From a virus: DNA of 26,750 bases. How positions within the stretch are numbered: the stretch's first letter is position 1; the number at the start of each line of letters is the position of its first letter. The position numbers were made by a program, and so were the translations under genes. The stretch is from UHGV virus genome UHGV-1449992; one strand, 5' to 3'. This document shows, in pieces, positions 9,911 through 26,750 of the stretch. The notes beneath the pieces are model-generated. The model did no database searches. It was not told the origin of the DNA and saw only the letters and a list, made by a program, of their open reading frames with translations.

Positions 9911-9912
9911 CC

Positions 9913-10186: not shown

Positions 10187-10202
10187 TTCATCGCTAACTA
10201 CA

Positions 10203-10253: not shown

Positions 10254-10328
10254 TTAAACAACGATAGCTGAAGTCTTTCTTAACCAATGGTAGGATTTGA
10301 GTACTTTTCTACCTTTTGGGATAAAAAA

Positions 10329-10850: not shown

Positions 10851-10870
10851 TACATTCTTGCTAATTAAAG

Positions 10871-10893
10871 AAAACCGCTTAGGCGGTTTTTTT
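10871..10893 (+). terminator. Rho-independent terminator after the membrane-protein gene
   Basis: AAAACCGC-TTAG-GCGGTTTT followed by a T run, directly upstream of the tape-measure start. Confidence 0.6.
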
Positions 10894-10911
10894 ATATCTG
10901 CGAGGATATAA

Positions 10912-13900
10912 ATGGCAACTTTACGCGAGCTTATCATTAAGGTTTCAGCAAACTCTCAATCATTCCAGACTGAGATCGCCCGCGCATCACGCATGGGGCA
11001 AGACTATTATAAAACTATGCAGAATGGTGGGCGTCAGGCTGCTGCTGCTGCGAAGGAAAGCCAAAAAGCTCTTTCCGAGTTAACGGATGGATTTGCTTCA
11101 GCGGGTCGAGCTGCCACAATTGCAGCTGCAGCATTTGCAACAGGAAAACTGGTTCAGATTGCAGACCAATGGAACTCAGTAAATGCACGGCTTAAACAAG
11201 CCTCAGTGTCTACGAATGATTTTACTTTATCTCAAACCCGATTAATGGCGATCAGCCAGAGTACGGGCACTGCTTTTACTGATAACGCTAATTTATTTTC
11301 ACGCGCGGCAGCATCAATGCGTGAATTTGGCTACAGCTCAGATGAAGTACTCAAAATCACCGAAGCGGTATCAACAGGACTAAAACTATCTGGTGCAAGT
11401 ACAGAAGAGGCCGGCTCTGTTATTACCCAGTTTAGCCAAGCGCTTGCTCAAGGTGTTTTGCGTGGCGAAGAGTTTAACGTGGTTAACGAAGCCGGGGATC
11501 GTGTCATCCGTGCCCTGGCTGCTGGTATGGGGGTTGCCCGAAAAGATCTTAAAGCGATGGCTGACCAGGGGCAACTCACGATTGATAAAGTCGTACCAGC
11601 ATTAATCAGCCAGTTAGGTGTGTTACAGGGGGAGTTTTCCTCGTTACCGCCGACAGTTTCCGGTTCAATGCAAAAAGTCACTAACTCCTTTATGGCATGG
11701 GTTGGAGGGGTAAACCAGGCTACTGGTGCAACAGACGCACTTTCTGGCGGTCTTGATGGGCTGGCAGGTACGCTGGATTCTCTTACATCTTCTGCTGTCA
11801 GCGGGGCCCTCAGTGACGTAGCAGATAATATGTCACTAATTACCACCGCCGCAGGTGGCCTAGTTGGGATCGGATTAGCCCGGTATCTTGGCGGGATTGT
11901 TACCAGCGCAAGCAGCGCTACTGGCGCACTTATTTCAGCCGCAAAATCTGAAGTAGCCCTTGCAGTAGCCCAGGAAAAAGCCGCGCAATCTTCCGTTGCT
12001 GCTTCCCGCGCCGCAGTTTATCGTGCCCAGCAAGCCCTTCAGAGTGCTAAAAGTGCAGATGTTCAGGCCGCACAACAGGAGAGGGTTGCAGCCGCAGAAG
12101 CAAAGGTTACTGCTGCACAAGGTCGATTGACTACAGCCCTCGCCACCGGGACAGCTACAGAAAAAGTACGAGCACGAACAGCTTTGGAGCGGGCTCAGGC
12201 CGGACTTGTGGCAGCAAAAAATGCCGATGCACAGGCTATTGCAGAAAGAAAACTTGCCACAGCTCAAGCGGCGCTTAGCCGTAATATTTCAGGTAGGGTT
12301 TCTGCTCAAAATAACCTTAACAGCGTTACCTCTGTCGGCACCCGGTTGATGAGCGGGGCTCTTGGGCTGGTCGGTGGTATACCCGGGTTAGTAATGCTGG
12401 GTGCTGGCGCATGGTACGCTATGTATCAAAGCCAGGAACAAGCAAGAAAATCAGCTCAGGAGTATGCCAGCCAAATAGATCAAATCAGAGAAAAAACCTC
12501 CTCAATGACCCTACCTGAGGTCGATAGTAATCGCAGATTATCGGTTGAGGCGATGCAGGAACAAAAGCGCCTAATCGAAGAACAAGAACGGAGCGTTAAA
12601 AGTCTTAACGGACAAATAAAGGATTTAAATGAAAGTAGAAACAAGCCAGGCATTACTCAAGAAAATGATTTGAATATTACAAAGGCTATCGCAATTCTTA
12701 CCGAACAGATTGTCGTAGAAGAAGACAAGCTTCGTCAGATGCGAGAAAAGGCAAGCGATATACTAAAGGCGCAGGAGGAACAAGAAAGAAGAAGAAACGA
12801 TCTTATTAAAGATCGCGCCTGGCGTCAAAATGCTGAATACCAGAACCTTGTAATGATGACTGGTAAGTATTCCGAAGTTAACCGTTTACTTGGATTGGGA
12901 AACCAGCTTTTAATGGAACGGCAGGGCTTGGTTAACGTGCCAATGCGAATGCCTCAGGCTGATTTAACATCTCAACAAACAGCCGCACTGGAAAAAAGCC
13001 GCCGGGATTTAGATCTCTCTACACGTAAAGGCGAAGACAAGGAGCGCACCAGACTTGGCTATGTTGCAGATGATTTGGGGCTGAAGGATGAACCTCAATT
13101 CCAGACCGGAAGACAAGAGATAATTAATAATGGCATTAAAGAATGGAAAAATAACGAGGCAAATAAACCCACCCGGAAAGCGCCAAAAAGCGAAGAATTA
13201 AAAGCCGCCGAGAAGACAGAAGATGTTTACAAGCGTCTTATTAAACAGCAGGAAGAACAAATCGCTTTGGGAAGCCAGAATACCGAACTGGCTAAAGTCA
13301 AATACCAGGTGACGCAGGGTGAATTAGCTTCTCTTGAACAAGCCAAAAAAGAAATAATTCTGCAAAATGCAGCGCTTATCGATCAGAAAAACATTGCTGA
13401 ACAGTTAAAAACGTTCCGTGAGGGGCTGGCTGACAGCAACGCTGCTGCTCGTGACCGGGGAAATATTGATTTTCTTGGCGCCGGGATGGGGGATAAGGCC
13501 CGCGACCGCATGAAGGAAATGGCAGATATTCGTACTGATTTTCTCAAACAGCAGCGCGACCTGCAGCGGGATTTCAGCAAAGGTCAGATTTCTGAGGACC
13601 TGTACAAACAGCAAACGGAAGCGCTTCAGGCGGCGCTTACTGAACGGCTCCAGATTCAGGAGGACTACTACAAGAAAACCGATGAACAGCAGTCAGACTG
13701 GCGGGCGGGGATCAGCGATTCACTGATGAACTACGCCGATCAGGCTGCTGACCTCAGTTCAATGGCTGCCACCGCAACCAGCGAAATTCTGGATGCCACC
13801 ACTAACTCTATCTCCAACAACCTGACCAGCGTCCTGACTGGTGCGACTTCGTTCAAAGATGGGATGTCGAACATTTTCAGCTCTCTGGGTGAAACGGTGA

Positions 13901-14493
13901 TTAAGACGTTGATACAGATGGCAACACAGGCGCTAATCACCAAAGCGATTATGGCGTCGTTCGGCGGTGGGGCTGGTGGAATGTTCGGGAGTCTTCTTGG
14001 CGGAGGTGGGGGAGGTGGCAGCACCGGGACGGCCATTCAGAGCGCTGGTGCTAATCTTTCGTTTAATGCTCTGGGTGGTGTCTACGATTCACCTTCACTT
14101 TCCGCATACAGCGGCGGTGTATACAGCACTCCGCAGTACTTTGCGTTTGCGAAAGGCGCGGGCGTGTTCGGTGAAGCGGGACCCGAAGCGATTATGCCCC
14201 TTACCCGTGGCGCTGACGGTTCGCTGGGGGTTCGTGCGGTTGGACGTGAGTCACCGGCAGTCCAGGATGCTGCAAGGCAGCAGCAGGAAAGACAACTTCT
14301 TTCAACAGGTGATATCAACGTCAATTACCACCTCACAGGTAAACCTGATGATGTGATGATGCAGACAATGGATGCCCACGGTCGCCGCCTGGCTAAACAG
14401 ATTAAATCTGAACTGACGAGCGACGTTAACAATCCTCAAAATGCTTTCGGTAGAGCACTTTACTCCAACCTTCAGCCCAAAAAACCACGATAA
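10912..14493 (+). CDS. Tail tape measure protein
   Basis: 1193-aa ORF, Ala/Gln-rich coiled-coil-like body, Gly-rich stretch near the C-terminus; position after G/T. Confidence 0.9.
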   Translation: MATLRELIIKVSANSQSFQTEIARASRMGQDYYKTMQNGGRQAAAAAKESQKALSELTDGFASAGRAATIAAAAFATGKLVQIADQWNSVNARLKQASVSTNDFTLSQTRLMAISQSTGTAFTDNANLFSRAAASMREFGYSSDEVLKITEAVSTGLKLSGASTEEAGSVITQFSQALAQGVLRGEEFNVVNEAGDRVIRALAAGMGVARKDLKAMADQGQLTIDKVVPALISQLGVLQGEFSSLPPTVSGSMQKVTNSFMAWVGGVNQATGATDALSGGLDGLAGTLDSLTSSAVSGALSDVADNMSLITTAAGGLVGIGLARYLGGIVTSASSATGALISAAKSEVALAVAQEKAAQSSVAASRAAVYRAQQALQSAKSADVQAAQQERVAAAEAKVTAAQGRLTTALATGTATEKVRARTALERAQAGLVAAKNADAQAIAERKLATAQAALSRNISGRVSAQNNLNSVTSVGTRLMSGALGLVGGIPGLVMLGAGAWYAMYQSQEQARKSAQEYASQIDQIREKTSSMTLPEVDSNRRLSVEAMQEQKRLIEEQERSVKSLNGQIKDLNESRNKPGITQENDLNITKAIAILTEQIVVEEDKLRQMREKASDILKAQEEQERRRNDLIKDRAWRQNAEYQNLVMMTGKYSEVNRLLGLGNQLLMERQGLVNVPMRMPQADLTSQQTAALEKSRRDLDLSTRKGEDKERTRLGYVADDLGLKDEPQFQTGRQEIINNGIKEWKNNEANKPTRKAPKSEELKAAEKTEDVYKRLIKQQEEQIALGSQNTELAKVKYQVTQGELASLEQAKKEIILQNAALIDQKNIAEQLKTFREGLADSNAAARDRGNIDFLGAGMGDKARDRMKEMADIRTDFLKQQRDLQRDFSKGQISEDLYKQQTEALQAALTERLQIQEDYYKKTDEQQSDWRAGISDSLMNYADQAADLSSMAATATSEILDATTNSISNNLTSVLTGATSFKDGMSNIFSSLGETVIKTLIQMATQALITKAIMASFGGGAGGMFGSLLGGGGGGGSTGTAIQSAGANLSFNALGGVYDSPSLSAYSGGVYSTPQYFAFAKGAGVFGEAGPEAIMPLTRGADGSLGVRAVGRESPAVQDAARQQQERQLLSTGDINVNYHLTGKPDDVMMQTMDAHGRRLAKQIKSELTSDVNNPQNAFGRALYSNLQPKKPR

Positions 14494-14513
14494 CCTGCCC
14501 GGAGGGAAAGTTA

Positions 14514-14987
14514 ATGGCGGATATTATCTATCCGGATGAGTACCTGCCTATGCCGCTGATGGACGGGTACGGTTTTAAGCCCATATCACCGATACTGCGA
14601 ACGGAGATGACGTCCGGTCGCGCTCAGCAGCGAAGGCGATACACCTCAACACCGACCCAGGCATCAGTTAAATGGATTTTTAAAACTGATGCGCTGGCGC
14701 AGGTATTTGAGGCTTTTTTCAGGGATGCGCTTAAAGATGGTCAGTCATGGTTCTATCTGAAACTCCAGACCCCCATCGGGGTAAAGCCCTATAAAGCCAG
14801 GTTCGTGGATATTTACGAAGGGCCGACGCTGGTCGCGCCAAAATACTGGCAGTACAGCGCAACGCTGGAATTATGGGAACGACCGTTACCGCCGGTTGGA
14901 TGGGGAAATTACCCGGAATGGCTCGCTGGTCAGTCGTTACTGGATATTGCGCTAAACAAAGAGTGGCCGAAGCATGACAATTCTTGA
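14514..14987 (+). CDS. Minor (distal) tail protein
   Basis: 157-aa ORF directly after the tape measure; synteny with distal tail/baseplate genes; family not determined. Confidence 0.55.
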   Translation: MADIIYPDEYLPMPLMDGYGFKPISPILRTEMTSGRAQQRRRYTSTPTQASVKWIFKTDALAQVFEAFFRDALKDGQSWFYLKLQTPIGVKPYKARFVDIYEGPTLVAPKYWQYSATLELWERPLPPVGWGNYPEWLAGQSLLDIALNKEWPKHDNS

Positions 14988-15450
14988 GCGGCTATATGCC
15001 AGCAGCGGTTCGGAGGTTATCCACGACACGCTGCAGATATCGGCTGGCGATGATAACTACTGGTTAACCAGCGGCTGGGATGACGTTTCCGTAACGTTGG
15101 AAAATGGTCAGCCGGCGACGTTTGAAGCCTGCGCGATAGAAATTGCACTGCCAGCGCGAAATGCGGACGGAACGCAGGATCTGAAATTCGCCCTGAGTAA
15201 TATTGACGGTGTCGTTTCTGGAGCCATCGATAAAGTTCTGGATGAAATGAAATCAGCCACGCTGACATTCCGGCGGTACATTTCATCAGATCTGTCTTCC
15301 CCGGCATCATCACCGTATACGCTCGATATCAAATCCGGCTCATGGACCCCGACAGCAGTGCAGGTCACGGCGGGCTATATGAATGTCCTCAAAACAGCCT
15401 GGCCCCGTAAACGTTACAACCTCGCCGAGCATCCGGGCTTACGTTACTAA
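14974..15450 (+). CDS. Minor (distal) tail protein
   Basis: 158-aa ORF overlapping the previous gene by 14 nt; synteny. Confidence 0.55.
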   Translation: MTILERLYASSGSEVIHDTLQISAGDDNYWLTSGWDDVSVTLENGQPATFEACAIEIALPARNADGTQDLKFALSNIDGVVSGAIDKVLDEMKSATLTFRRYISSDLSSPASSPYTLDIKSGSWTPTAVQVTAGYMNVLKTAWPRKRYNLAEHPGLRY

Positions 15451-15462
15451 CCTGAGGCAAAT

Positions 15463-15843
15463 ATGTTTAATCCTGATAAATACCGTTCAGTCAGCTGGCT
15501 GAAAGGCGGTCGCGTATACCCGCTACTCGACTGCTTCGGCATTGTGAATGAAATCCGGCGCGATCTGAAATTACCCCTCTGGCCCGATTTCGCCGGAGTG
15601 ACCAAAGACGGGGGAGGCCTCGACCGGGAGGCGAGAAGGTTGATGCTTTCCCTGCAACGCTGCGAGCCCTGCGAAGGGGCTGGCGTGGCCTGCTATTCCG
15701 GCTCAACGGTTACCCATGTCGGGATCGTTGTCATGCTCGATAACCAGCTGCAGGTCGCGGAATGTAATCCAGGCTCGGGGGTTACGTTTCTGCCACTGGC
15801 GCGATTCATACGACGGTTTAACCGCGTGGAGTTCTGGCAATGA
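15463..15843 (+). CDS. NlpC/P60 (C40 peptidase)-like tail protein
   Basis: 126-aa ORF with candidate Cys...His catalytic pair (LDCFGIV ... THVGIVV) in papain-like spacing; position equivalent to lambda gpK-type proteins. Confidence 0.6.
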   Translation: MFNPDKYRSVSWLKGGRVYPLLDCFGIVNEIRRDLKLPLWPDFAGVTKDGGGLDREARRLMLSLQRCEPCEGAGVACYSGSTVTHVGIVVMLDNQLQVAECNPGSGVTFLPLARFIRRFNRVEFWQ

Positions 15844-18800
15844 CGATAAAGTTTTTTCCGTCCCGGTTGCCGGGTGAACCCCTGGAGACGCACGAACATG
15901 GCGCGATGACCCTGCATGAGTGGATGGCCAGGAATGTCCCGAGCTACTCGCAGGACAGAAAGCATCCTGTTGCGGTCGAACTGGACGGCCGGGCTGTTCC
16001 ACCTGCGGAATGGCCACTATGTTTGCTGCGGCCAGACAGCGATGTGCGGATTTACCCGATCCCGTATGGAACCGGCCTGGAAATCGCCGTGTGGGTATCG
16101 GTTGCCGTATCTATTGCCTCTACGGCCTATGCGCTGTTTTTCGCCCCGAAACCAGAGCTGGGCGGGTTTTCGTCAGGCAATTCAGCATCACTGGACCTGA
16201 ACCCGGCAAAAGCGAATACAGCTAAGCTTGGCGATCCTGTTCGTGAGGTATTCGGAAGAAACAGAATTTATCCGGATTACCTGGTGCAGCCGGTCACTCG
16301 CTTTGACCCCAATGATCCCACCCGGATGACGGTCGAAATGTTTGTCTGCCTCGGGTATGGACGTTTCTCTTATACCGGCGGTGATTTTCGGGTGGGTGAA
16401 ACTCCTGCTCTGCCGTTAGGCGATGGCTTTTCTTATACCAGCTATGGGCCGGGCGATAACGTGGCGGGGGACCGTCGCAGCGAGGTCTGGTTCAACAGTA
16501 CAGAAGTTGGCGGGACATCAAGCGGGTCAGGTCTGGATATGGCTCAGACTGCCCCTGAAGCCAGTGATATCGTTGCTGATGCCATGACTGTTAGCGGTGC
16601 ATCTGTTTCGTTTTCAGGTCTCGATGTCGATGATGACAACGATGATGATGAAGATGAGAACAAGCTGCCTCCTGGCTGGATTGAGGGTGCAATTGTCACT
16701 CTGAAAGCGCCAGTGAATTATCAGGTATCCATCGAGGGCGGTTTTAACGTGCTGACAGGAGACGTCGTGTCAGAGATTGCGCCATTCAGTGGAATGCCTG
16801 TCACCCTAACGTTTAACGGTACTGACTATGACCTGCAGATCGCCACGTATACCCCTCACCAGGACGCCGTTCCGGGAACAGGGGGAGCGACTGCGGTATT
16901 ACGCGCCAGTGCGTCGCCGTCAACGTATGACTTTACGACAACCAGCCAGACCTTTGCTCTGACCTGGCAGGGTATCACCTATACCATATCTCTGGTCGCC
17001 AACTACGGCACAATGTCTGGCTTGCTCGCAGCGATTAATGGCGGGTTGAATGGTTCGGGGCTCATTGCTCAGGATGATGGCGGCGTGATACGTATCGTCG
17101 AGATCTCCAGCCCCTGGCGTGGCGGCTCCATTACGTCATCTTTCCTGCCGGCGTCAGTATTTGGTGACGGCCCGGTATTTACTGCTGGTGCAGCCTCCAG
17201 CGGCGGAAGCCCTGCGGTAACAGCCAGCATCACGCTGGCATACGATTCTGGCACTGCCTTTTCCGGATTGCCGGAAGGAACCCAGCGGATTTCCCTGGCG
17301 CATCGTGGCAACGAATACCAGATAGCGTCTACTGATGGCCCCTCTGCGACCGTACAGCGTGTGGTTAACGGTGTCATCGACAGCACCTGGTCAGGCTTTA
17401 TGACCCGTACCGTCGTGGATTTTGCCGCGTCTGGTATTAACGATAATGAAACCTGGCTAGGCCCCTTTCTGGCCTGCCCGCAAAATGAAGTTGTGGACGC
17501 CTTCGAGGTCAACTTTGCTTTCCCAAACGGAATTTGCGGGTTCCAGAACAACGGGAATAAGCGGGTCCGCCATGTCGAGTATGAAATCCAGTATCGCGTT
17601 TATGGTTCCGGTTCAGGGTGGACGAGTAAGCCAGGGGTTTACGCGCTTAAAAACATTAATGGCCTCGGTTTTACAGAGCGTTTTGATCTGTCCTCTCCCG
17701 GGCTGGTGGAGGTTCGATGCCGCCGCCGTAACGAGCAGGGGAGCAACAACGCGAGAGACAGCATGTTCTGGCAGGCGCTCAGAGGTCGTTTGCTTTCCCG
17801 TCCAACCTCCTACGCAGGGATATCAACAATAGGGATCACGGTTGAAACCGGCGGCCAGCTGGCGGCGCAGTCAGACAAGCGTGTGAGTGTTGTCGCCACG
17901 CGAAACTATGATGGCGGTGGTGACAGGACAATCAGCGGTGCGTTCCTGCATCTTGCCCGCAGTCTGGGATATCGCGACGACCAGATCGACATTGCGGGGC
18001 TCAGTACGCTGGAGGCCACCTACTGGACGCCACGAGGCGAGTATTTTGACCATCAGGCAAGCAGTGACAGCACGTCCGCAAAGGATATTTTCGACAAGAT
18101 TGCTGAAGCAGGCATGGGGTATTTTCTGCTGTCTGACGGCTTACTTTCCGTCGGGCGTGAAGGGGTCAAAAGCTGGACCGGAATCATCACCCCCCAGGAT
18201 ACTGTCGAGGAAATGCAGACATCATTCAGGGTGCCTTCGGAGGACGATTTTGATGGTGTGGATGTGAAATACATCAATCCCGTGACCTGGGCGGAGGAGA
18301 CCGTACAGTGCCGGACGCCTGAAAATCCGTTCCCCCGGAAAACGGAGGCTTACACCATCGATGTCGTCATGACTGCGGATCGTGCCTGGCGTATCGGGAT
18401 GCGCCGGTTAATGAAATATCTCCATCAACGCCGGACGTATACGGCTACAACTGCAATGCTGGGATGGTGCCATGATTTTGGTGACCACATCATTTTGTCA
18501 GATGATATTCGAACCGGGAAAACCCAAAGTTGCCTGATTGACGCAATGACATACGACTTTCAGGAAATAACGCTACATGTCACCGAGCCTCTGGACTGGA
18601 GCTATACAAATCCCCGGTGCTGGATACTGTTTCAGAACAGTCGTCCATCGTCACGGATGCTGACGCCGCAGCGGATAGATGATTTCACTCTTACCATACC
18701 TTACAACGACGATCTGCACCCGGAAGACTGGATTATGGACGACCCTGATATTGATCCACCGCGTTTGCTGTTCTGCGACAGTGAAAAAGGTGCCCGGCAT

Positions 18801-18917
18801 GGGATAGTCCAGGAGGTTGCCCCATCCGGTGAAAGCAACTGTCAGATTACCGCGCCGGAATATAAAGAAATTTTCTACGCCTACGACGACGCCACATACC
18901 CCGGCGACGTCGCTTAA
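15840..18917 (+). CDS. Tail tip / host-specificity protein (J-like, TipJ-type); N-terminal hydrophobic segment suggests a fused gpI-like portion
   Basis: 1025-aa ORF with 4-nt overlap to the upstream gene; size and position match a central tail fibre/tip protein. Confidence 0.75.
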   Translation: MTIKFFPSRLPGEPLETHEHGAMTLHEWMARNVPSYSQDRKHPVAVELDGRAVPPAEWPLCLLRPDSDVRIYPIPYGTGLEIAVWVSVAVSIASTAYALFFAPKPELGGFSSGNSASLDLNPAKANTAKLGDPVREVFGRNRIYPDYLVQPVTRFDPNDPTRMTVEMFVCLGYGRFSYTGGDFRVGETPALPLGDGFSYTSYGPGDNVAGDRRSEVWFNSTEVGGTSSGSGLDMAQTAPEASDIVADAMTVSGASVSFSGLDVDDDNDDDEDENKLPPGWIEGAIVTLKAPVNYQVSIEGGFNVLTGDVVSEIAPFSGMPVTLTFNGTDYDLQIATYTPHQDAVPGTGGATAVLRASASPSTYDFTTTSQTFALTWQGITYTISLVANYGTMSGLLAAINGGLNGSGLIAQDDGGVIRIVEISSPWRGGSITSSFLPASVFGDGPVFTAGAASSGGSPAVTASITLAYDSGTAFSGLPEGTQRISLAHRGNEYQIASTDGPSATVQRVVNGVIDSTWSGFMTRTVVDFAASGINDNETWLGPFLACPQNEVVDAFEVNFAFPNGICGFQNNGNKRVRHVEYEIQYRVYGSGSGWTSKPGVYALKNINGLGFTERFDLSSPGLVEVRCRRRNEQGSNNARDSMFWQALRGRLLSRPTSYAGISTIGITVETGGQLAAQSDKRVSVVATRNYDGGGDRTISGAFLHLARSLGYRDDQIDIAGLSTLEATYWTPRGEYFDHQASSDSTSAKDIFDKIAEAGMGYFLLSDGLLSVGREGVKSWTGIITPQDTVEEMQTSFRVPSEDDFDGVDVKYINPVTWAEETVQCRTPENPFPRKTEAYTIDVVMTADRAWRIGMRRLMKYLHQRRTYTATTAMLGWCHDFGDHIILSDDIRTGKTQSCLIDAMTYDFQEITLHVTEPLDWSYTNPRCWILFQNSRPSSRMLTPQRIDDFTLTIPYNDDLHPEDWIMDDPDIDPPRLLFCDSEKGARHGIVQEVAPSGESNCQITAPEYKEIFYAYDDATYPGDVA

Positions 18918-18946
18918 TACCCCATAAAAATCCCTTATTAACTCTT

Positions 18947-18972
18947 TTCGCTCAAACCCTCGTTTGCGCGAA
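18947..18972. other. 26-bp near-palindrome resembling a Hin/Gin/Cin/Pin-family invertase crossover site (left copy)
   Basis: TTCGCTCAAACC-CT-CGTTTGCGCGAA; half-sites match each other at 10 of 12 positions and fit the hix/gix pattern TTnTCnnAAACC-NN-GGTTTnnGAnAA as recalled from memory. An identical copy in inverted orientation lies at 26716-26741. Confidence 0.45.
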
Positions 18973-19300
18973 CGCCTTTTTTGGAGCAAAAAACATGGCC
19001 TTTAACCCGGAGCTGGGGAGCACGTCTCCCGCTGTTCTGCTCGATAACGCCGAGCGCCTGGATAAGCTAGTGAATGGTGATGTGCTGACCGAACCGGACC
19101 GCGCGGGCGTTGATCTGGATACTTGGCGCGGAATGATGGCGAAAAACGATGAGGTTAGGAAAAACCTGATCCCATTGAGTAAGCAATACATGACGATTGA
19201 GGCGGCGCAGGCTGATATCGCGAATATTCCAGAGGGGTCAACGACCTATGTGAGAAGCCCAGGCAATATAGCCCTGGCATTTGAAGTTATTAATAATGGG
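18947..19300. repeat. Left arm of an inverted repeat (leader plus 5' roughly 300 nt of the tail fibre gene)
   Basis: Leader 18947-18997 is identical to the reverse complement of 26692-26741 apart from a 1-nt A-run indel; the coding part is about 80% identical at nucleotide level. Confidence 0.8.
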
Positions 19301-22300
19301 GGAGTGCTTGAACCTACATGGCGAGCAATGCCGTCGCAGGCTTATGTAGATTTTACTTTATCCAGCGCGGGACAACTGCCTTCAGCGATAATGACCCGTG
19401 ACGAAATATACGCTTCGGTCGAGAGATACGGGCAGTGGACTCGTACTGATACCAACGGATGGGCTGTCGGAGTCAAATCCAGTGGTAAGCCAGTGAACAG
19501 CCTGGCGCTGTGGCTGAATAACCTTTCTGAAATCAGCACGCTTTCTGTTTCTGTTTATCACCGCACTGTTGACGGTTTTTCAGTTCTGCCGGGCGCCGCT
19601 ACAGACAAGCTAATGAGTAGCCAGTCGGTCGCATCTGAAGACGTAGCGATAACTCAAGCACTGGCGCAAGGGTATCAGTTAGTCAGGCTCACCGTGCCTG
19701 ATGTACTGCTTAAATCTGATGAAATCATTCTGTTCGTCGTTAAAGCGCTCGATGCTTCAGGCGCTCCAGTTTATCTGGGGTGTGGCCGGGCGCCGGTTGA
19801 ATCAGGACAGGTTTCTGATTTAAATAACTCTCTGGGCGGTTTCTGGCTTGATGTCGCCCAGACAGCATGGAAGACAGTTACCTCATCTGACAGTCTGTAC
19901 CGGCTGGCTTACAGGGTCGGCTATTTCAGTACGGCAGCCAATAATTACTCGGCCTTTGCTCTCTCCCGTAGTGTTGTGCAGGAGGTTGTGGGAAACAGCT
20001 CAAATTATGCGACGGGCACGACCTTGTCAGGGCGATTTTATGGCTGGGCACTTGGTTTCAAATCTGTGCCAGGGGCGTTCGATATGATCACCCTTTACCA
20101 TAACAACCTCGATGCGGTGGCATATATTGATTACAGGATTGTTCTGCGCGAATTGACTTACGGTACTGCTGCGCAGCCTCTCGGCACTATCGCAACGGAC
20201 AGAGAGGTATTCTCATCACGTAAACTTCCACCGCCGCAGGGGAATAGCCTTTTCACCGCTGTTGATTACCCAGTTCCTGAACTTGTGGTACCCGCAGGAT
20301 ATTTTGCTGCAATAGAACTGCACCCGCTGCAGTGGAACGGCGATACGGCGGACATGGGATGCCAGGCTCATAACTATGCAGGGGAGACATTGCCAACCGA
20401 TATTGGCAGAGGCTATTTTGTCAATCGTAATGATAACGTATGGCGCGTAATATCAGATTCTACTAATGGACTCGCGTATGCACTTGCTCTTGCCGAGTGG
20501 GGAGGCATCCCTCAGGGGGTTGAAAAAGCACAGGGTGAAATCTCGACGCTGAATTCACTAGTTGTTCAGACCAGCCAGACCGTTGCGGAAATGAATACCT
20601 ATGAGATGGAAACGTCTTTTGAAAAAGCATCAGATAATCTTCAGTGGTCCTATGCATCTATGGTTGAATCTGCTCGATTCTGGCGGTGGGCGGTGCCAGT
20701 TTCTGCAGAAGCATCTGAGTTAAAATCCATCGCCATGTGGCTTGATGGCGTATCTCTTAATACCATTCTTCAATGCGACGTTTATTTCCGGCTGACATCA
20801 AACCAGACCAATACATCGGGACCGGGAGCTGTATCTGGTGACATTCTGGCCTTGACAGCAAATGTCACGCCGTTGCCAGCTAATACAGCGATGACAAAAA
20901 TCACGCTCCCGGTAGACCGTCTGACGGTACCGGCTGGTTATTTCCCGATCGTGGCTGTGACCGCATATTACAGTGCTGGCGTGAGCGGAAATCTGGGGTC
21001 AGGCTCGAAATCCTACAGCGCTGGTGATAATCCGGCTACGTACCTCAAGGGCTGGTACCAACGTTTTGACCGCACCGGTTGGCAGACTATCCCTGCGGGG
21101 ACATATGCCGCTGTCGCTGTCAGTGCTGTACTTGTCACCGCTCAGGATCTGCAGGAGAAAATTGCGTCTCTTGAATCCGGTTCTGATGTAACCGCCGATT
21201 ATTCCGGGGACAGCATCGATCGCTATGCACCGCAGGTAGCGGCTACTGGATTAACAGCCGTCATTACTGGTAACGCCATTCTCCGCGGGTCAGCAAAACC
21301 TATATCGGGGACGCTGACATTTGATGCGACAACGGTTGGTAGCACGACTGTCGCCAGCAGTCTTGTGCAGGCATCAGCGGCAGCACAATGGCCATCTAAC
21401 CCTAATGCCTGGTTGGGCGAGAAGCGCATCAGCGCAGTGACCGTAACCAATACTGCAACGAGCACACCGTTAACACCAGGGATGCACTATAACGTTGACA
21501 GCTACGGCGGGAAGCTGAGAGGACTGACGGCAACCACCTACGCTGTCAGTGTGACGTTTACGTACACGCGCGAGCGTTACGACCTGATTCAGATTGACCC
21601 GACGTCACTCGCACTGTCAGTGAAAAAAGGGATGGAACGGGCATTTGACGTTCAGGAATATCGTCCCGCGCCTGATGCCGGAAAAGTCGCGCTTTATTAC
21701 GTTCTGGTCGCCGGAAGCACGCTCGAATTCGATCCGGTTCACCGTTATGTAGACCTTGGCGGCGAGATGCTGGATGGCAAGGATTATGGCTTGCTGCGGC
21801 AGCACAACCGGCGCTTCCTTCAGAAAACGCTGGCGCGCCTGAATCGTGGTCAGGCGATTACGCTGGTAGGGCACGGAGACTCAATCACCGCAGTGTCTAA
21901 TATCAACAGCCCGGCGACGACACCGAACGGAACAACGCGTGACCTGCAGAGGTTTTTGCAGGGAGGCTATGGCAGCGACACACTGACGAACTTGTATCCC
22001 GCGCAGGACTGGGGGGATGGCGGTGGTGCTGTTCATGTCAGTATCGGCTGGAACCGGGTGCTGAAGAAGCATTTTGAAGATGTTTACGGGTCAGAAGTGA
22101 CGTATTACAACTTCGGAATGTCGGGGACGACCTCGGCATCTGGTGCGGGTTCAGACCGTCTCGGCGCGATTACCGCGCTTTCACCGCACCTGACGGTTGT
22201 CGGGTTCGGTATGAACGATAACGCGGGAAGTACGCTGTACGGAAACCTGATGACCATCATCAGCACGCTGAAAGCTGCGGGTTCTGAGGTTGTTCTGATG

Positions 22301-22555
22301 CCGGTGCCGCGCACGTCAAATACCGAAGACGGACGCTATACCCAGGACCAGACCCGGTATATGAACCGGCAGATATACAGAGCCGCGATTGACGGAGGCG
22401 CAGCATACGCACCGGCGGACTGGCTGACGGACGACAACAGCAAGGGAGGCATGGGCATTGCCACCACCTCTCTTACTGGCTCAGACCTGCGCAACCATCC
22501 GGGCGGATACGAAATGAGCATCTACGGAAAGGCGCTGGTTAATGTGTTCTGCTGA
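18995..22555 (+). CDS. Tail fibre/spike protein A: conserved N-terminal anchor domain, central body, C-terminal SGNH/GDSL-type hydrolase (esterase) domain
   Basis: 1186-aa ORF with GGAG ribosome-binding site. C-terminal motifs LVGHGDSITAV (GDS block), VVGFGMNDNAG (GxND block) and SDLRNHPGG (Asp/His block) are in SGNH order. Confidence 0.8.
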   Translation: MAFNPELGSTSPAVLLDNAERLDKLVNGDVLTEPDRAGVDLDTWRGMMAKNDEVRKNLIPLSKQYMTIEAAQADIANIPEGSTTYVRSPGNIALAFEVINNGGVLEPTWRAMPSQAYVDFTLSSAGQLPSAIMTRDEIYASVERYGQWTRTDTNGWAVGVKSSGKPVNSLALWLNNLSEISTLSVSVYHRTVDGFSVLPGAATDKLMSSQSVASEDVAITQALAQGYQLVRLTVPDVLLKSDEIILFVVKALDASGAPVYLGCGRAPVESGQVSDLNNSLGGFWLDVAQTAWKTVTSSDSLYRLAYRVGYFSTAANNYSAFALSRSVVQEVVGNSSNYATGTTLSGRFYGWALGFKSVPGAFDMITLYHNNLDAVAYIDYRIVLRELTYGTAAQPLGTIATDREVFSSRKLPPPQGNSLFTAVDYPVPELVVPAGYFAAIELHPLQWNGDTADMGCQAHNYAGETLPTDIGRGYFVNRNDNVWRVISDSTNGLAYALALAEWGGIPQGVEKAQGEISTLNSLVVQTSQTVAEMNTYEMETSFEKASDNLQWSYASMVESARFWRWAVPVSAEASELKSIAMWLDGVSLNTILQCDVYFRLTSNQTNTSGPGAVSGDILALTANVTPLPANTAMTKITLPVDRLTVPAGYFPIVAVTAYYSAGVSGNLGSGSKSYSAGDNPATYLKGWYQRFDRTGWQTIPAGTYAAVAVSAVLVTAQDLQEKIASLESGSDVTADYSGDSIDRYAPQVAATGLTAVITGNAILRGSAKPISGTLTFDATTVGSTTVASSLVQASAAAQWPSNPNAWLGEKRISAVTVTNTATSTPLTPGMHYNVDSYGGKLRGLTATTYAVSVTFTYTRERYDLIQIDPTSLALSVKKGMERAFDVQEYRPAPDAGKVALYYVLVAGSTLEFDPVHRYVDLGGEMLDGKDYGLLRQHNRRFLQKTLARLNRGQAITLVGHGDSITAVSNINSPATTPNGTTRDLQRFLQGGYGSDTLTNLYPAQDWGDGGGAVHVSIGWNRVLKKHFEDVYGSEVTYYNFGMSGTTSASGAGSDRLGAITALSPHLTVVGFGMNDNAGSTLYGNLMTIISTLKAAGSEVVLMPVPRTSNTEDGRYTQDQTRYMNRQIYRAAIDGGAAYAPADWLTDDNSKGGMGIATTSLTGSDLRNHPGGYEMSIYGKALVNVFC

Positions 22556-22573
22556 TTCATTTCATTAACAAAA

Positions 22574-22608
22574 CATTGCGGCTGTCAATTCTCATGACAG
22601 CCGCAATG
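22574..22608. terminator. Bidirectional terminator hairpin between the convergent fibre genes
   Basis: Perfect 14-bp stem CATTGCGGCTGTCA / TGACAGCCGCAATG with 7-nt loop, flanked by A/T-rich sequence on both sides. Confidence 0.6.
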
Positions 22609-22614
22609 ACCTTA

Positions 22615-25600
22615 TTAAAGACACGCTTTCCAGCAGTACAGACCTCCGTGATCGTATGTCGATGCGCCGTTACCCAGACCTTCATACAAATCGGAACGGT
22701 CAAAGGAAAGCATAAAAAGCTCCGTTTCATCTCCATTAGTGAACGGGACCAGCGTGCACCATGGCCCCGTTGTGTTCGGAGCCAGATACACATCCTGCAC
22801 AAATTCCCCCAGGAAGGTCAGACCTGCCTCATACTTGCGCAGATGCAGTCGGTTGGCCGTTCCTCCGCTTGTCAGGTAGGTTGTCTCGCCGAAATGAACG
22901 AACTGATTCCCGGTATCGCGCACGCCAGCAGGGACTTCTGCCGTCGTATATTCCGGCACAATACCGTCGTACAGCGTCGGGCTCCGGAAGGTTTTGCATC
23001 CACTGGAGATGGTGTTTCCCGTCATCACCCACTGGCTGCTCGACGTTTCATAGTAGAAATCAATATCCTCCACGTAGCTTGCCCCGATCCCGAAAAAACT
23101 GCCGTTGGCGTTCTTCAGTTGCACGGAGTTTCTGACGATGATCACGCCGCCCTGCAGCAAGTCCTGTTTCGTCTCAAAGTACAGTTTTGGTCGATTGTTA
23201 TCGGCCAGCCCTTTCCCCTGATAGTCCATACCGCAAGAGATGCCCTTCCAGCTCTGACTGTTCCGGTCATACACCGCCTTGATACTGTCATCACCCAGCA
23301 CGACATCCTCATCGGTTCCGTCAGTCCGAACCTGGAAAATCGCGCCCACCATCTGCACTTCACCGCTGTTGAAGTTGATACGGACTATCTGAGTGTACAG
23401 GTCGGAGATAGTGGTCCCTGTTCCCTCAACGAGAAAATAAAGCCAGTTACCGCGCTGAATAAACGTCCCGTCTTCATAGGTCAGAAAGCGAATGGAGACG
23501 GAATTCGCCCCGCTGGCAATTCGGTTTGAAAAACCACTAAAGACAGCAATATCACTGGCCGAATATGCATCCGTTTGTGCGAACACGTACGTTTTCCACG
23601 TGTCCAGGTATTCCAGCCTGCGGGCATCAAAGATGGCATAGTGCTCATAGCGGCCAATCCATTTCCACGTCCCGTCAGCGTTCACTTTTTTTAGCAGCAG
23701 TGACACCCCGGTATTCTGCACCTGAAGCACTGCGCCGGTCATATCCGAACCGGTGAACGTGGTGGTATCAAGCAGACTCCCTGCGGCGTAGATTTCACAG
23801 ATAACCTGGCTGTTCGAGACGCGGACCGAAACACTGTTCTGCTGGTCAACATCCGCGAACATTATCCCCATCGTGGCATTGCCTGCCAGCCTGTCGATCG
23901 CGATCTCACTGGTTGCAAAGGGCATATAGCGATCCGCGAACATCACCACCCGGCCATTTGCTGTCGGGTTACGGAAAGAGACCTTTCCTGCTGACCAGGA
24001 ATAAGCAAACACATTCCCGGCGGTGATATCGTAAATATTGCTCTGCAGATTCCAGGGATTGTTTTCCAGGTCCATAAAAGAGAGCATGAACGAGTCAGCG
24101 GCATTGTAAAAATCGCGACGCGCCCACTGCTTAGTGAAAGTGTATTCCAGAGGGTTGCTGAAACTGTCGAAGTCAGGCGTCTTTTCAGGCAGCCCGGATA
24201 AATCGACATGGTAAGGCGCGTTAAAAACTTTTGCTTTTACCTGACTGCTCCGCGAGGACTGCTCAATCATGGCGGATACGTCATTGAATCTGGCGACCTG
24301 ATTGGAATAAATCTTCCTGACGGCGTATACGGGATCGGTTGTTTTTCTGACGCGCACCGCAACGTAACCGTCCTGTGTGGCCACTCCGCGATACGTTGCC
24401 GTCACATATCCGCCGCCCGATTTGAAGGTGAAGAGGTCCGACACCCACCCCTTGTCCGCGTCACATTGCATGATATAGGCGATAAGTTCTCCGACGGTGG
24501 CGGAGCCGTACTGCCCGTACATCTCGACAGAGTCGCCTTTTCGCACCGGGATGTAATACATCCGCCAGACACTGTAAGCAGAGCCGGAGACGATATTACC
24601 GCCGCTGTACATTACTGAGTTATCAGCAATGACTGATGCCACGCTGGTATAATCGATGGTTTTTACCGGCCCTCTGAGGTCTGATGCAAAAGCTTTATCC
24701 TGAGACGTCCGTGTTATGGTTGCCGCGGGTGTGGTGACGCGTACGCGCACGTAAACGAAACCATCCTGGGTTGCCACGCCGGCCATTACGCCGTTACTGG
24801 TGACACCCGGTGATGTGTAAGTGGCAAGATTAGCCACCACCGCCATTGCCGCATCCAGCTGAATGATATAAGCAATAACTTCGCCTGCCGTGCCGGAGCC
24901 GATTTGCCCGAAATAGCGCACGATATCCCCCGCGCGAACAGGAACATACGCTGCTTTCCAGTTCTCACCTGCGGTGTCAGAAATCATTCCGCCTGAGTAT
25001 ATAACCCGCCCCGTGATAGTGTATGTATCCGGTGCACTGGTCACGTCCAGGGTTGTTCTGTTAGCCGCAGCAATATCGGCCGGGTTCATTACAGCGTATA
25101 CGTTGCCGGGCAGGGAAAACAGTTGAGTGGTCTTTGTAATGGTTGCTGCCGGATCAGTCACACGCACCCGGACATAAACAAAACCATCCTGTGTGGCGAC
25201 ACCAGTCATAACACCAGCGCTGGACGAACCGGGCGAAGTATAGGTGGCGAGTGGCGCCACAAATTTCATCGCACTGTCGAGCTGGATGATATAAGCCAGT
25301 ACCTGGCCCGAAGTGCCGGAGCCGATTTGGCCGTGATACTGAATAACCTCTCCTGCTTTCACGGGCAGATAAGCTGCTTTCCAGCTATCTCCTGCGTTGT
25401 CCACCACCGAACCATCCGCTGACATGACACGCCCGATAATATATGTGGTGGTTGAAGCATTAGTGACATCCGTAGTCACGCGGTTGGCCGCATTCACAGA
25501 CGTTACAGTTTTGACGCCGAATACATCTGCGCCGGGTGTGAACCGCTCTCTGCTCTGATAAATCGCCGCTTCCGGCGTGGTCACCCGCACACGGAAGTAA

Positions 25601-26694
25601 GCGAAACCGTCCTGGGTTGCCACGCCCGATAAAACACCTGTCTTTTGGACTCCTTCCGACGAATAAGTCACCAGATTCCCCACCACATTAAGGCTGGTGT
25701 CGAGCTGAATTATGTACGCCATCAGCTCGCCGGGAATAGCGCTACCAATCTCACCGTGATATTCGAGAGCATCCCCCTTTTTTACGGGAACGTAAGCAGC
25801 ACGCCATGACTCCCCGGCGGAATCTGTGCGGGTACCATCGGCATAAATCACCCGCCCGATCACCCATGCAGTACTTTGAGATGAGGTAATATCAACAAGC
25901 GGTTTATTCGCCAGTACGTTCTGATAACTGGCATAGCTTGCTACCCCTCCGGCGGCATCAATATCTGCCTCCACCAGAATTGTTTTTTTGCGCTGCGTCA
26001 GGGTGAATTCTGCCGTATCCCTCACCCGGACGTAAATATACCCGTCCTGAGTCGCAACTGCTGACAGAGTGGCTTTATCCGTTACGTTCCCGGTTGATGT
26101 CCACTCAGCCAGAGATGCCACGAATGCTTTGTTGGCGTCCAGCTGGATAAGATACGCTATCTGTTCGCCAGCAGTGTTAGAGCCCACTGTTCCGCTATAG
26201 GTGACGCTCTCGCCCGCCCTGACTTTCAGATACCAGGCATTCCATGTAGGACTCGATGCAGTAGAGCCATCAGCATATATCACCAGTCCGGCAACAATTT
26301 CCGCATCGCTTTTAGCATCCCCTGTTATGTAGCCCGTTTTCAGAGCGCTCATCGACGGCATAGCTCTGCCGGTAGCTGCCAGTGTGCCACCGTTATTAAT
26401 GTACTCATCCGCCAGTGTGCCGCCATCAGGGCTGCGTACATAGGTTGTTGAGCCATCCGGGATGTTTGCAATATCAGCCTGAGCCGCTTCAATCGTCATG
26501 TACTGCTTACTCAATGGCACAAGGTTCTGACGAATCTCGTCATTTTTCGCCATGAATCCGCGCCAGGTATCCAGATCAACACCCGCGCGATCAGGCACGG
26601 TGAAAGCGTCCGAATTCACCAGGTTATCCAGGCGCTCAGCGTTATCGCGCAGAACCGCCGGAGAAGCACTCCCCAGAGGAGGATTAAAGGCCAT
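22615..26694 (-). CDS. Tail fibre/spike protein B: same N-terminal anchor domain as protein A, five tandem copies of a roughly 140-aa domain, distinct roughly 570-aa C-terminal module
   Basis: Probable start at the ATG complementary to 26692-26694 (MAFNPPLGSASPAVL...), with the same leader as gene A; the six-frame ORF extends 10 codons further to 26724. First 110 aa are about 75% identical to protein A. Confidence 0.8.
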   Translation of the reverse strand: MAFNPPLGSASPAVLRDNAERLDNLVNSDAFTVPDRAGVDLDTWRGFMAKNDEIRQNLVPLSKQYMTIEAAQADIANIPDGSTTYVRSPDGGTLADEYINNGGTLAATGRAMPSMSALKTGYITGDAKSDAEIVAGLVIYADGSTASSPTWNAWYLKVRAGESVTYSGTVGSNTAGEQIAYLIQLDANKAFVASLAEWTSTGNVTDKATLSAVATQDGYIYVRVRDTAEFTLTQRKKTILVEADIDAAGGVASYASYQNVLANKPLVDITSSQSTAWVIGRVIYADGTRTDSAGESWRAAYVPVKKGDALEYHGEIGSAIPGELMAYIIQLDTSLNVVGNLVTYSSEGVQKTGVLSGVATQDGFAYFRVRVTTPEAAIYQSRERFTPGADVFGVKTVTSVNAANRVTTDVTNASTTTYIIGRVMSADGSVVDNAGDSWKAAYLPVKAGEVIQYHGQIGSGTSGQVLAYIIQLDSAMKFVAPLATYTSPGSSSAGVMTGVATQDGFVYVRVRVTDPAATITKTTQLFSLPGNVYAVMNPADIAAANRTTLDVTSAPDTYTITGRVIYSGGMISDTAGENWKAAYVPVRAGDIVRYFGQIGSGTAGEVIAYIIQLDAAMAVVANLATYTSPGVTSNGVMAGVATQDGFVYVRVRVTTPAATITRTSQDKAFASDLRGPVKTIDYTSVASVIADNSVMYSGGNIVSGSAYSVWRMYYIPVRKGDSVEMYGQYGSATVGELIAYIMQCDADKGWVSDLFTFKSGGGYVTATYRGVATQDGYVAVRVRKTTDPVYAVRKIYSNQVARFNDVSAMIEQSSRSSQVKAKVFNAPYHVDLSGLPEKTPDFDSFSNPLEYTFTKQWARRDFYNAADSFMLSFMDLENNPWNLQSNIYDITAGNVFAYSWSAGKVSFRNPTANGRVVMFADRYMPFATSEIAIDRLAGNATMGIMFADVDQQNSVSVRVSNSQVICEIYAAGSLLDTTTFTGSDMTGAVLQVQNTGVSLLLKKVNADGTWKWIGRYEHYAIFDARRLEYLDTWKTYVFAQTDAYSASDIAVFSGFSNRIASGANSVSIRFLTYEDGTFIQRGNWLYFLVEGTGTTISDLYTQIVRINFNSGEVQMVGAIFQVRTDGTDEDVVLGDDSIKAVYDRNSQSWKGISCGMDYQGKGLADNNRPKLYFETKQDLLQGGVIIVRNSVQLKNANGSFFGIGASYVEDIDFYYETSSSQWVMTGNTISSGCKTFRSPTLYDGIVPEYTTAEVPAGVRDTGNQFVHFGETTYLTSGGTANRLHLRKYEAGLTFLGEFVQDVYLAPNTTGPWCTLVPFTNGDETELFMLSFDRSDLYEGLGNGASTYDHGGLYCWKACL
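24325..26340 (-). repeat. Intragenic tandem repeat: five copies, period about 393-435 nt, each encoding a domain ending in the motif VATQDG(F/Y)xYxRVR(V/K)T
   Basis: Repeat-end codons map to about 26016, 25581, 25158, 24735 and 24342 on the minus strand; the DNA copies are recognisably similar (e.g. GTCACCCGCACACGGAAGTAAGCGAAACCGTCCTG versus GTGACGCGTACGCGCACGTAAACGAAACCATCCTG). Confidence 0.75.
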
Positions 26695-26741
26695 GTTTTT
26701 GCTCCAAAAAAGGCGTTCGCGCAAACGAGGGTTTGAGCGAA
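26390..26741. repeat. Right arm of the inverted repeat (leader plus 5' end of fibre gene B)
   Basis: Reverse complement matches 18947-19300 (identical leader, about 80% identical coding part). Confidence 0.8.
26716..26741. other. 26-bp hix/gix-like near-palindrome (right copy, inverted relative to 18947-18972)
   Basis: TTCGCGCAAACG-AG-GGTTTGAGCGAA is the exact reverse complement of the left copy. Confidence 0.45.
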
Positions 26742-26750
26742 AGACCGGAG

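Follow-up and report, generated by a model that had tools for sequence, protein, structure and literature searches.

A probable SGNH-type esterase side fibre encoded in an invertible-type cassette of a Klebsiella prophage

The fibre genes and their modules

The window analysed here, a stretch of 26,750 nucleotides from the virus genome UHGV-1449992, carries two convergent genes for large fibre proteins, spike A and spike B. The open reading frame list gives spike A as 1186 aa. The main features of the locus are the following:

15840-18917: J-like tail-tip gene, matching PF24801 and PF13550
18995..22555, plus strand: tail spike/fibre A gene, 1186 aa, directly downstream of the J-like tail-tip gene
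18995..19354, plus strand: N-terminal anchor (aa 1-120), also present in spike B and in many receptor-binding proteins of Klebsiella prophages
19403..21139, plus strand: three homologous all-beta modules (aa 137-310, 325-500 and 539-715), found as internal repeats by phmmer
21221..21781, plus strand: pre-domain (aa 743-929), all-beta in the model and co-conserved with the SGNH domain
21782..22552, plus strand: SGNH/GDSL hydrolase domain (aa 930-1186), the 257 residues at the extreme C-terminus of spike A
22574..22608, unstranded: hairpin with a 14-bp stem between the two convergent spike genes, resembling a terminator on the minus strand (terminator scan)
22615..26694, minus strand: alternative receptor-binding gene spike B, encoding 1359 aa counted from its ATG, with the same anchor as spike A

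Spike A is a virion receptor-binding protein, as its gene follows the J-like tip gene and its anchor recurs in other tail-fibre PHROGs and in spike B. The anchor matches PHROGs 31290 and 9750 over aa 1-119, is about 75% identical to the N-terminus of spike B and shares 65% identity with that of 164_08-KL2, a receptor-binding protein assayed as an esterase. The three all-beta modules, interrupted by a helical linker at aa 509-533, vary in number from 1 to 3 among homologues; a blastp self-comparison did not detect these repeats, whereas phmmer did. The AlphaFold2 model of aa 121-930 is all-beta and of medium confidence (pLDDT 75.8), with a domain pLDDT of about 80-90 for the three modules. In Foldseek the modules give weak matches to tandem jelly-roll proteins and to CBM6/CBM51 (best E 1.5e-5, TM about 0.1-0.46). 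Judged from these models, they are probably jelly-roll/CBM-like and carbohydrate-binding. Of 197 proteins, 114 carry the pre-domain directly before the SGNH domain.

Spike B contains five repeats of about 140 aa (aa 133-791) followed by a C-terminal part without family assignment. It matches PHROG 23037 (annotated function unknown); Pfam gave no match exceeding its cutoff and the PDB none at all, and at the DNA level no repeats were detected with Tandem Repeats Finder. The hairpin between the two genes folds as RNA with -25.6 kcal/mol (z = -6.3).

The SGNH domain, its catalytic residues and its proposed function

Working from the letters of the DNA, an earlier note had placed a C-terminal SGNH/GDSL esterase domain on spike A at 21780-22555, that is aa 929-1186, for which the in-frame start is 21779 or 21782. 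Profile searches, structure prediction and conservation among 140 homologues agree on this assignment. Of the SGNH/Lipase_GDSL profiles proposed for the search, Pfam Lipase_GDSL_2 (PF13472) matches spike A with an E-value of 3.5e-12 (47.6 bits; curated cutoff 32.9), and Lipase_GDSL (PF00657) matches the isolated domain with a score of 27.0 against a cutoff of 23.6. PF13472 is likewise matched by 27 of 28 aligned homologues. The AlphaFold2 model (pLDDT 94.9, pTM 0.93) displays a three-layer alpha/beta/alpha fold whose central sheet is parallel, along with two N-terminal helices. Its best structural neighbours in Foldseek are SGNH esterases without exception, the top matches being Shigella phage B2 Gp48, the acetylxylan esterase Axe2, Moo19 gp82 and the SFP21A fibre; phage esterase tailspikes among the neighbours comprise G7C gp63.1, B2 Gp48, Moo19 gp82 and SFP21A Gp09.

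A PDB search with the single sequence gave a marginal match (E 0.11), so that a profile search was needed to obtain PDB matches to the domain, and a single-protein scan of genome contigs returned one remote Clostridia match. An NCBIfam search of the fibre found nothing. Homologues were collected by exhaustive protein search, as a word-indexed search gave three close partial matches. In the resulting family the SGNH domain is C-terminal in 148 of 152 proteins, whose lengths range from 131 to 1506 aa and mostly exceed 400 aa; the subfamily comprises 388 representative clusters and is almost always fibre-terminal.

The blocks of the predicted active site are located as follows (counts refer to the 140 homologues):

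21875..21883, plus strand: block I, G961-D962-S963, with the nucleophile Ser963 (Ser 140/140, Gly 134/140, Asp 134/140)
21938..21943, plus strand: R982-D983 pair (D983 139/140, R982 128/140)
22109..22126, plus strand: block II, N1039-F-G1041-M-S-G1044, with the oxyanion Gly (N1039 140/140)
22208..22219, plus strand: block III, G1072-M-N1074-D1075, with the oxyanion Asn (G 137/140, N 139/140)
22484..22501, plus strand: block V variant, D1164-L-R-N1167-H1168-P1169, with the base His1168 (H 140/140)

Ser963 of block I is followed by I964, fitting GDS(L/I). Between blocks I and II the alignment reveals a family-specific insertion of about 55 aa, which harbours the R982-D983 pair as well as the near-invariant residues D995, D1008 and H1014. 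The pair is a candidate substitute acid, or a candidate ligand of substrate or metal. Block II, which the motif list of the earlier note did not include, is present, and the profile search pairs it with the TesA stretch 'NASISGDTS'; at the position of G1044, Gly occurs in 118 and Ser in 20 homologues. Position 1075 in block III is Glu in 108 and Asp in 23 homologues. In block V, N1167 and P1169 are kept in 128/140 and 131/140, while position 1164 is Asn in 108/140 and Asp in 11/140.

The GDS, GxND and Asp/His-Pro motifs reported earlier thus all lie where they had been placed, but the last of them does not have the canonical form: it reads DxxxH, with Asp1164 at His-4, and the His-3 position that carries the acid of a DxxH motif is occupied by Leu1165, a variable residue. 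Likewise, two members of the anticipated Ser-His-Asp triad, Ser963 and His1168, are invariant (140/140), while the canonical Asp is absent. SGNH membership nevertheless stands, since the Ser-His dyad esterases CE2 and SsEst show the same departure and, lacking the block V Asp, are active (PMC9487903). Because the Pfam matches, the model with its Foldseek neighbours and the conserved Ser, His and Asn provide three independent lines, we assign the last 257 residues of spike A, on sequence and model, as a genuine SGNH-type esterase domain. This agrees with the automated annotation of the identical protein at NCBI ('SGNH/GDSL hydrolase family protein [Klebsiella michiganensis]'), and the class as such was already published in 2026.

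In catalysis Ser963 would act as the nucleophile and His1168 as the base, with the oxyanion hole formed by Gly1044 and Asn1074. As the classical block V Asp is missing, His1168 would have to be oriented otherwise, either by a main-chain carbonyl, as happens in the dyad enzymes CE2 and SsEst, or by Asp983, the invariant acid of the insertion; Asp/Asn1164 and Glu1173 are further candidate partners. The missing Asp could alternatively signify lost or changed hydrolysis, the fold having been kept as a binding or structural module or as an acyl-transferase. We consider this highly improbable: 140 diverged homologues keep Ser963, His1168, Asn1074 and Asn1039 with little or no exception, which argues that catalysis was retained, the dyad enzymes cited above are active, and an extracellular virion protein is without an acyl donor.

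Domain identity, fold and residue conservation are direct results, from which we infer esterase activity and, by analogy with assayed relatives, the substrate. Hereby, the 120-aa anchor would fix spike A to the tail tip, the three jelly-roll modules and the beta pre-domain would build a shaft that probably binds polysaccharide, and the distal 257 aa would act as a catalytically competent SGNH serine esterase. The likeliest task of such a fibre would be to free the host capsule or O-antigen of O-acetyl or comparable small acyl esters at the time of adsorption, making spike A a receptor-modifying enzyme rather than a depolymerase. In line with this, G7C-like tailspikes hydrolyse pNPA (PMC11654681), as do the two Klebsiella prophage SGNH receptor-binding proteins 164_08-KL2 and 174_38-KL55 (PMC13123978), and by analogy capsule or O-antigen acetyl groups are the presumed substrate of spike A. 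The literature searched contained no enzymatic assay of any member of the spike A SGNH subfamily. The proposal that the fibre modifies its receptor instead of cleaving glycosidic bonds gains indirect support: Pfam and NCBIfam revealed no other enzymatic family within the 1186 aa, and Foldseek detected no pectate-lyase-type beta-helix in the model of aa 121-930, where matches were jelly-roll/CBM-like only. The lack of a beta-helix there favours modification over cleavage. With a fibre devoid of a depolymerase fold, the phage would be expected to bind and alter the decoration of the surface glycan and not to cut the polymer. An active hydrolase could also be directed at another envelope ester, such as O-acetylated peptidoglycan (Ape1-like), the acyl chains of LPS or phospholipids (lipase/lysophospholipase-like) or non-acetyl substituents; we regard this as unlikely.

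An invertible-type cassette around both fibre genes

The spike A gene lies within a 7.8-kb cassette (18946-26742) bounded by perfect inverted repeats of 47 bp:

18946..18992, unstranded: IR-L, 47-bp inverted repeat, 100% complementary to 26696-26742, ending 2 nt before the spike A ATG
26696..26742, unstranded: IR-R, 47-bp inverted repeat, whose end lies 2 nt ahead of the ATG of spike B (26694, minus strand)

IR-L contains the shared GGAG ribosome-binding site and, at 18947-18972, a 26-bp site of 12-2-12 layout, TTCGCTCAAACC CT CGTTTGCGCGAA, whose counterpart in IR-R occupies 26716-26741. The site is an imperfect palindrome (10/12 symmetric positions) and may resemble hix/gix in its TTC..AAACC half-site. 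Beyond the perfect core, the arms of the repeat extend as 283 nt at 79% identity.

Among six contigs compared, all of which share segment 18946-26742 with >99.9% identity, the cassette, viewed against the J gene and the recombinase, has the orientation of the window in three (L001, L004, L005) and is inverted in the other three (L002, L003, L006). The breakpoints of both orientations fall inside the inverted repeats. The adjacent recombinase gene lies outside the window and starts, in contig L001, 43 nt beyond IR-R. It encodes a protein of 183 aa with Resolvase and HTH_7 domains that matches the Mu Gin structures 3uj3 and 4m6f (E about 1e-71; 1.4e-71 for 4m6f) and is about 64% identical to Mu Gin, as counted on the alignment. 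The 26-bp site was found beside anchor-type receptor-binding genes in 76 stretches of IMG/VR, next to the C-terminus of J in 72 of them, and in 28 of the 28 recombinase-bearing stretches it lies between an anchor-type receptor-binding gene and the recombinase. A search of the 76 stretches with the SGNH-family HMM found no member. Klebsiella phage KPP5665-2 has an equivalent layout with an annotated 'DNA invertase'.

These data suggest a switch in which the Gin-like serine invertase encoded just downstream would flip the cassette with its convergent spike genes, so that the late tail operon would read into either A or B; the window would then represent the A-ON state. While both orientations and the invertase homology are observed directly, alternate expression and an effect on host range are what we infer from them. 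As public assemblies contain both orientations, three each, the two spikes are probably made in alternation. The orientations come from different assemblies and not from one population, so that active inversion, and the silence of whichever gene faces backwards, are presumed.

The same distribution could also arise if the orientations were fixed alleles, produced by rare homologous recombination between the similar gene starts of about 330 bp, with both proteins perhaps transcribed from promoters of their own and mounted together; arms of 283 nt at 79% identity could indeed support RecA-mediated inversion. Several features make this decidedly unlikely. The 47-bp core is perfect, as opposed to 79% identity in the adjoining coding sequence, and a Gin-family invertase is encoded 43 nt from IR-R. 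Moreover, dozens of prophages that otherwise diverge carry the same 26-bp site at these two junctions. Finally, to the right of spike B there is no promoter-like site above chance that would lead into the gene, and the invertase gene faces the other way.

Taken together, we consider it likely that spike A is the esterase side fibre of a lambda/HK97-like prophage of the Klebsiella oxytoca complex and is expressed via DNA inversion. That the SGNH fibre is one arm of a widespread, previously undescribed host-range switch of Klebsiella prophages, consisting of a Gin-like invertase, two complete unrelated receptor-binding genes and a crossover in the 5' untranslated region, is a more tentative proposal, for which doubt slightly prevails. 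The literature searched contained no description of an invertible receptor-binding cassette in Klebsiella prophages. If such a switch operates, each lysogen population would release two kinds of virion, and predictions of capsule specificity from genomes would count a receptor-binding gene that is silent in the given orientation. With the gene under Gin-type inversion, the receptor-binding protein that a Klebsiella prophage displays may depend on cassette orientation, which bears on host-range prediction, on association studies between receptor-binding genes and capsule loci, and on phage engineering.

Comparison with known esterase fibres and inversion systems

The closest esterase tailspikes are G7C gp63.1 (PDB 4qnl), Moo19 gp82 (9d81), B2 Gp48 (9d84) and SFP21A Gp09 (9lna), with which spike A shares 14-17% sequence identity. 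These G7C-type spikes belong to Schitoviridae (N4-like) podophages, whereas spike A is the fibre of a siphoviral prophage. Their esterase domain is internal (aa ~188-384 of the 777-aa chain in B2 Gp48; aa 537-695 of 1086 aa in the 9d80/9d81 tail-fibre chain), while that of spike A sits at the extreme C-terminus, after a conserved pre-domain and CBM-like modules. In contrast to the G7C-type tailspikes, spike A lacks the canonical block V Asp.

Also among the closest known proteins are 164_08-KL2 and 174_38-KL55, described and assayed by Otwinowska et al. (PLoS Biol 2026, PMC13123978), which makes no mention of inversion or invertases. Like spike A, both are Klebsiella prophage tail fibres with a C-terminal, 'brush-like' SGNH domain and a proposed role in capsule deacetylation. 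However, 164_08 belongs to a different SGNH subfamily, SASA (PF03629). A search with the N-terminus of 174_38 gave P0207 as the nearest SGNH-bearing relative; this close relative of 174_38 is remotely similar to the spike A family, its comparison with the family profile reaching an hhalign probability of 49.5%. The spike A subfamily, with no block V Asp and an invariant Arg-Asp insertion, thus differs from the subfamilies of both assayed Klebsiella prophage esterases. Fold, blocks I-III and the His are further shared with the SGNH carbohydrate acetylesterases Axe2, CE2, CE3, CEX mannan esterase and rhamnogalacturonan acetylesterase. Unlike spike A, these are soluble bacterial or fungal enzymes, and compared to them the spike A family possesses the additional insertion of ~55 aa after block I and the two N-terminal helices.

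With respect to inversion, the nearest systems are the Mu G, P1 C and e14 P segments with their Gin/Cin/Pin/Hin-family invertases. They have in common with the present cassette a Gin-like invertase alongside, short inverted sites, two opposed alternative fibre genes and the natural occurrence of both orientations. In Mu and P1 the crossover lies inside the fibre gene, so that one constant N-terminal region is combined with alternative C-terminal regions and their assembly genes. The spike A/B cassette, unlike those of Mu and P1, carries no assembly chaperone gene. Its sites fall within the 5' untranslated region and closely precede the ribosome-binding site and ATG shared by the two genes. Inversion would swap two whole, unrelated genes (3.6 and 4.1 kb), each bearing a diverged anchor copy of its own.

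SGNH domain at the C-terminus of spike A

The tail spike gene, spike A, has the following layout.

18995-22555, + strand: spike A reading frame, 1186 aa
aa 137-310, 325-500 and 539-715: three homologous modules
aa 961-1169: SGNH motifs in SGNH order, G961-D962-S963; N1039-x-G1041-x-S-G1044; G1072-M-N1074-D1075; D1164-L-R-N-H1168-P1169

The earlier note placed an SGNH/GDSL esterase domain with GDS, GxND and Asp/His-Pro blocks at 21780-22555, corresponding to aa 929-1186 of spike A. All of these blocks are indeed present, in the order expected for SGNH hydrolases, and the profile search yields a significant match to Pfam Lipase_GDSL_2 (47.6 bits, cutoff 32.9, E 3.5e-12); Lipase_GDSL likewise exceeds its cutoff when the domain is searched in isolation. 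This confirms that the motif pattern is not due to chance.

With aa 900-1186 as query, an exhaustive HMMER search returned 388 representative clusters at E<=1e-3, 61 of them at E<=1e-30. The domain ends at most 10 residues from the C-terminus in 148 of 152 family proteins examined, most of which exceed 400 aa (range 131-1506 aa), and is thus a fibre-terminal module. It is also carried by Caulobacter phage tail fibres (31% identity, tblastn). All 140 aligned members have the nucleophile Ser963, the base His1168 and Asn1039; 139 have Asn1074 and 139 have Asp983, and at position 1044 Gly occurs in 118 members and Ser in 20. Three residues ahead of the His the position is variable (Leu1165 in spike A) and four residues ahead it is Asn in 108/140 (Asp1164 in spike A), so that the acid of the classical DxxH motif is missing family-wide. 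Of the canonical Asp/His block, the histidine therefore stands while the acid does not. Ser-His dyad enzymes such as CE2 and SsEst are active, with a main-chain carbonyl orienting the His (PMC9487903). The alignment further reveals that block I, the GDS block, is followed by a family-specific insertion some 55 residues long (within aa 966-1036), which bears an invariant Arg982-Asp983 (nt 21938-21943) and near-invariant Asp995, Asp1008-Gly1009 and His1014. Asp983 is a candidate for the substitute acid, or for a substrate or metal ligand, and the charged insertion residues (R982, D983, D995, D1008, H1014) may form a substrate groove or stand in for the catalytic acid.

An AlphaFold2 model of aa 930-1186, computed from a 28-sequence alignment, shows the strand/helix alternation of the SGNH fold (pLDDT 94.9, pTM 0.93), and its closest PDB structures are SGNH esterases. 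Foldseek ranks Shigella phage B2 Gp48 first, followed by the Axe2 acetylxylan esterase, Moo19 gp82 and the SFP21A tail fibre; the family profile alignment to B2 Gp48 takes in the helix ahead of the GDS strand. PMC11654681 describes the spikes of Moo19 and B2 as hydrolysing pNPA and as requiring O-antigen modifications for entry, and G7C gp63.1 is cited in PMC13123978 as deacetylating O-antigen. Taken together, profile matches, conserved residues and the predicted model uphold the SGNH reading for the domain, and an esterase role is probable, with a glycan as the predicted substrate.

Anchor, modules and pre-domain of spike A

The anchor (aa 1-120) is common to spike A and the convergent receptor-binding gene, spike B (about 75% identical), and also matches several tail-fibre PHROGs. 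Relatives of spike A contain one to three of the homologous modules, and a pre-domain (aa 743-929) accompanies the SGNH domain in 114/197 proteins examined. The model of aa 121-930 is all-beta with two helical linkers (pLDDT 75.8, domains about 80-90). Its Foldseek matches are weak, comprising tandem jelly-roll proteins and CBM6/CBM51-type modules, and include no pectate-lyase-like beta-helix; in the whole protein no Pfam or NCBIfam family was detected other than the SGNH ones. The absence of a beta-helix and of another enzymatic family supports the earlier suggestion that spike A modifies its receptor rather than cleaving it, with modest fold evidence for the middle region.

A probably invertible cassette in a prophage late module

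The window covers the late structural genes of a lambda/HK97-like siphoviral prophage, in the order terminase, portal, capsid, tape measure, DUF1833 protein and J-like tip protein. The latter (15840-18917, + strand; FNIII-A_GpJ and Phage-tail_3 domains) goes under the name "kinase" in several public records of Klebsiella phages, and nearby small tail genes are titled "nitrite transporter" or "formate/nitrite family transporter"; such titles are evident, propagating annotation errors. Several Klebsiella prophage records match the window at 85-90% DNA identity until about 19,050, where similarity ends. The exact spike A protein is carried by 16 contigs, Klebsiella michiganensis chromosomes among them, and metagenome contig L001 is 100% identical to window 8995-26750. 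The following features lie beyond the J-like gene.

18946-18992 and 26696-26742: perfect 47-bp inverted repeat flanking spike A and convergent spike B
22574-22608: hairpin with 14-bp stem in the 59-nt gap between spike A and spike B (-25.6 kcal/mol, z -6.3)
22615-26694, - strand: spike B, 1359 aa from ATG

Each repeat arm contains a GGAG ribosome-binding site and ends 2 bases before the ATG of spike A or spike B; the 283 nt that follow are only 79% identical between the arms. Within the repeat lies a 12-2-12 imperfect palindrome, TTCGCTCAAACC-CT-CGTTTGCGCGAA, whose layout and TTC..AAACC half-site presumably resemble those of hix/gix sites. In contigs of near-identical prophages that encode an identical spike A, the 7.8-kb cassette 18946-26742 is conserved at >99.9% identity and occurs in both orientations relative to J: three (L001, L004, L005) share the window's arrangement, in which J is followed by A and B is reversed, and three (L002, L003, L006) read from J into B with A reversed. 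Directly beyond the right arm, outside the window, a 183-aa serine recombinase (L001:17791-18339) matches Mu Gin structures (E 1e-71, about 64% identity counted by hand from the alignment). Downstream of it, also outside the window, a UmuD-like (Peptidase_S24) and UmuC-like (IMS) gene pair (L001:18831-20517) separates the invertase from the host genes yejM, yejL and yejK; it may represent cargo of the prophage or mark the edge of its integration site.

The 26-bp palindromic site was found in 76 IMG/VR stretches, adjoining a J C-terminus in 72; the recombinase is present in 28 of the stretches, and there the site always separates it from an anchor-type receptor-binding gene. Several contigs bear an inverted pair of sites spaced 5.7-7.4 kb apart, and the layout recurs in Klebsiella phage KPP5665-2, where one gene is annotated "DNA invertase". 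In KPP5665-2 (MF695815.1, 15803-22866) an "O-glycosyl hydrolase" receptor-binding gene faces two reversed genes, and L081:2708-8302 (IMG/VR) comprises J, the site, a lone spike-B-type gene and a diverged invertase, and within that stretch a second site is absent; cassette cargo is therefore highly variable.

In spike B the 120-aa anchor is followed by five tandem repeats (aa 133-791), each about 140 aa long, and then by a C-terminal part of some 570 aa. Pfam yielded no family above cutoff for it, and the PDB no matching sequence; its only match is PHROG 23037 (function not assigned), and Klebsiella genomes title it "hypothetical protein". Because a T-run follows the hairpin on the minus strand only, it resembles a terminator for spike B and is the weaker candidate for spike A. 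For the reversed receptor-binding gene, no promoter-like site exceeding chance was found. These observations are most economically read as a Mu-G-like switch, in which inversion of the cassette would make the late operon express either A or B.

Relation to known esterase fibres and invertible systems

Otwinowska et al. 2026 report pNPA esterase activity for two Klebsiella prophage SGNH fibres and propose that capsule may be deacetylated instead of being depolymerised (PMC13123978). As such fibres are already described and assayed, and the exact spike A sequence is present in NCBI as an SGNH/GDSL hydrolase family protein of Klebsiella michiganensis, spike A adds a further, previously annotated protein to a published class and is itself ordinary. 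One of the two, 164_08-KL2, starts with the same anchor (65% identity). Both assayed esterases belong to SGNH subfamilies other than that of spike A: 164_08-KL2 is SASA, and a relative of 174_38-KL55 aligns with the spike A family at an hhalign probability of only 49.5%. In the literature searched we found neither an assay of any member of the spike A subfamily nor a description of such a switch in Klebsiella prophages, and inversion is not mentioned by Otwinowska et al. (PMC13123978). The inversion context is more interesting than the SGNH domain itself. Unlike those of Mu and P1, the proposed switch exchanges two complete genes, each with an anchor of its own, and has its crossover in the leader.
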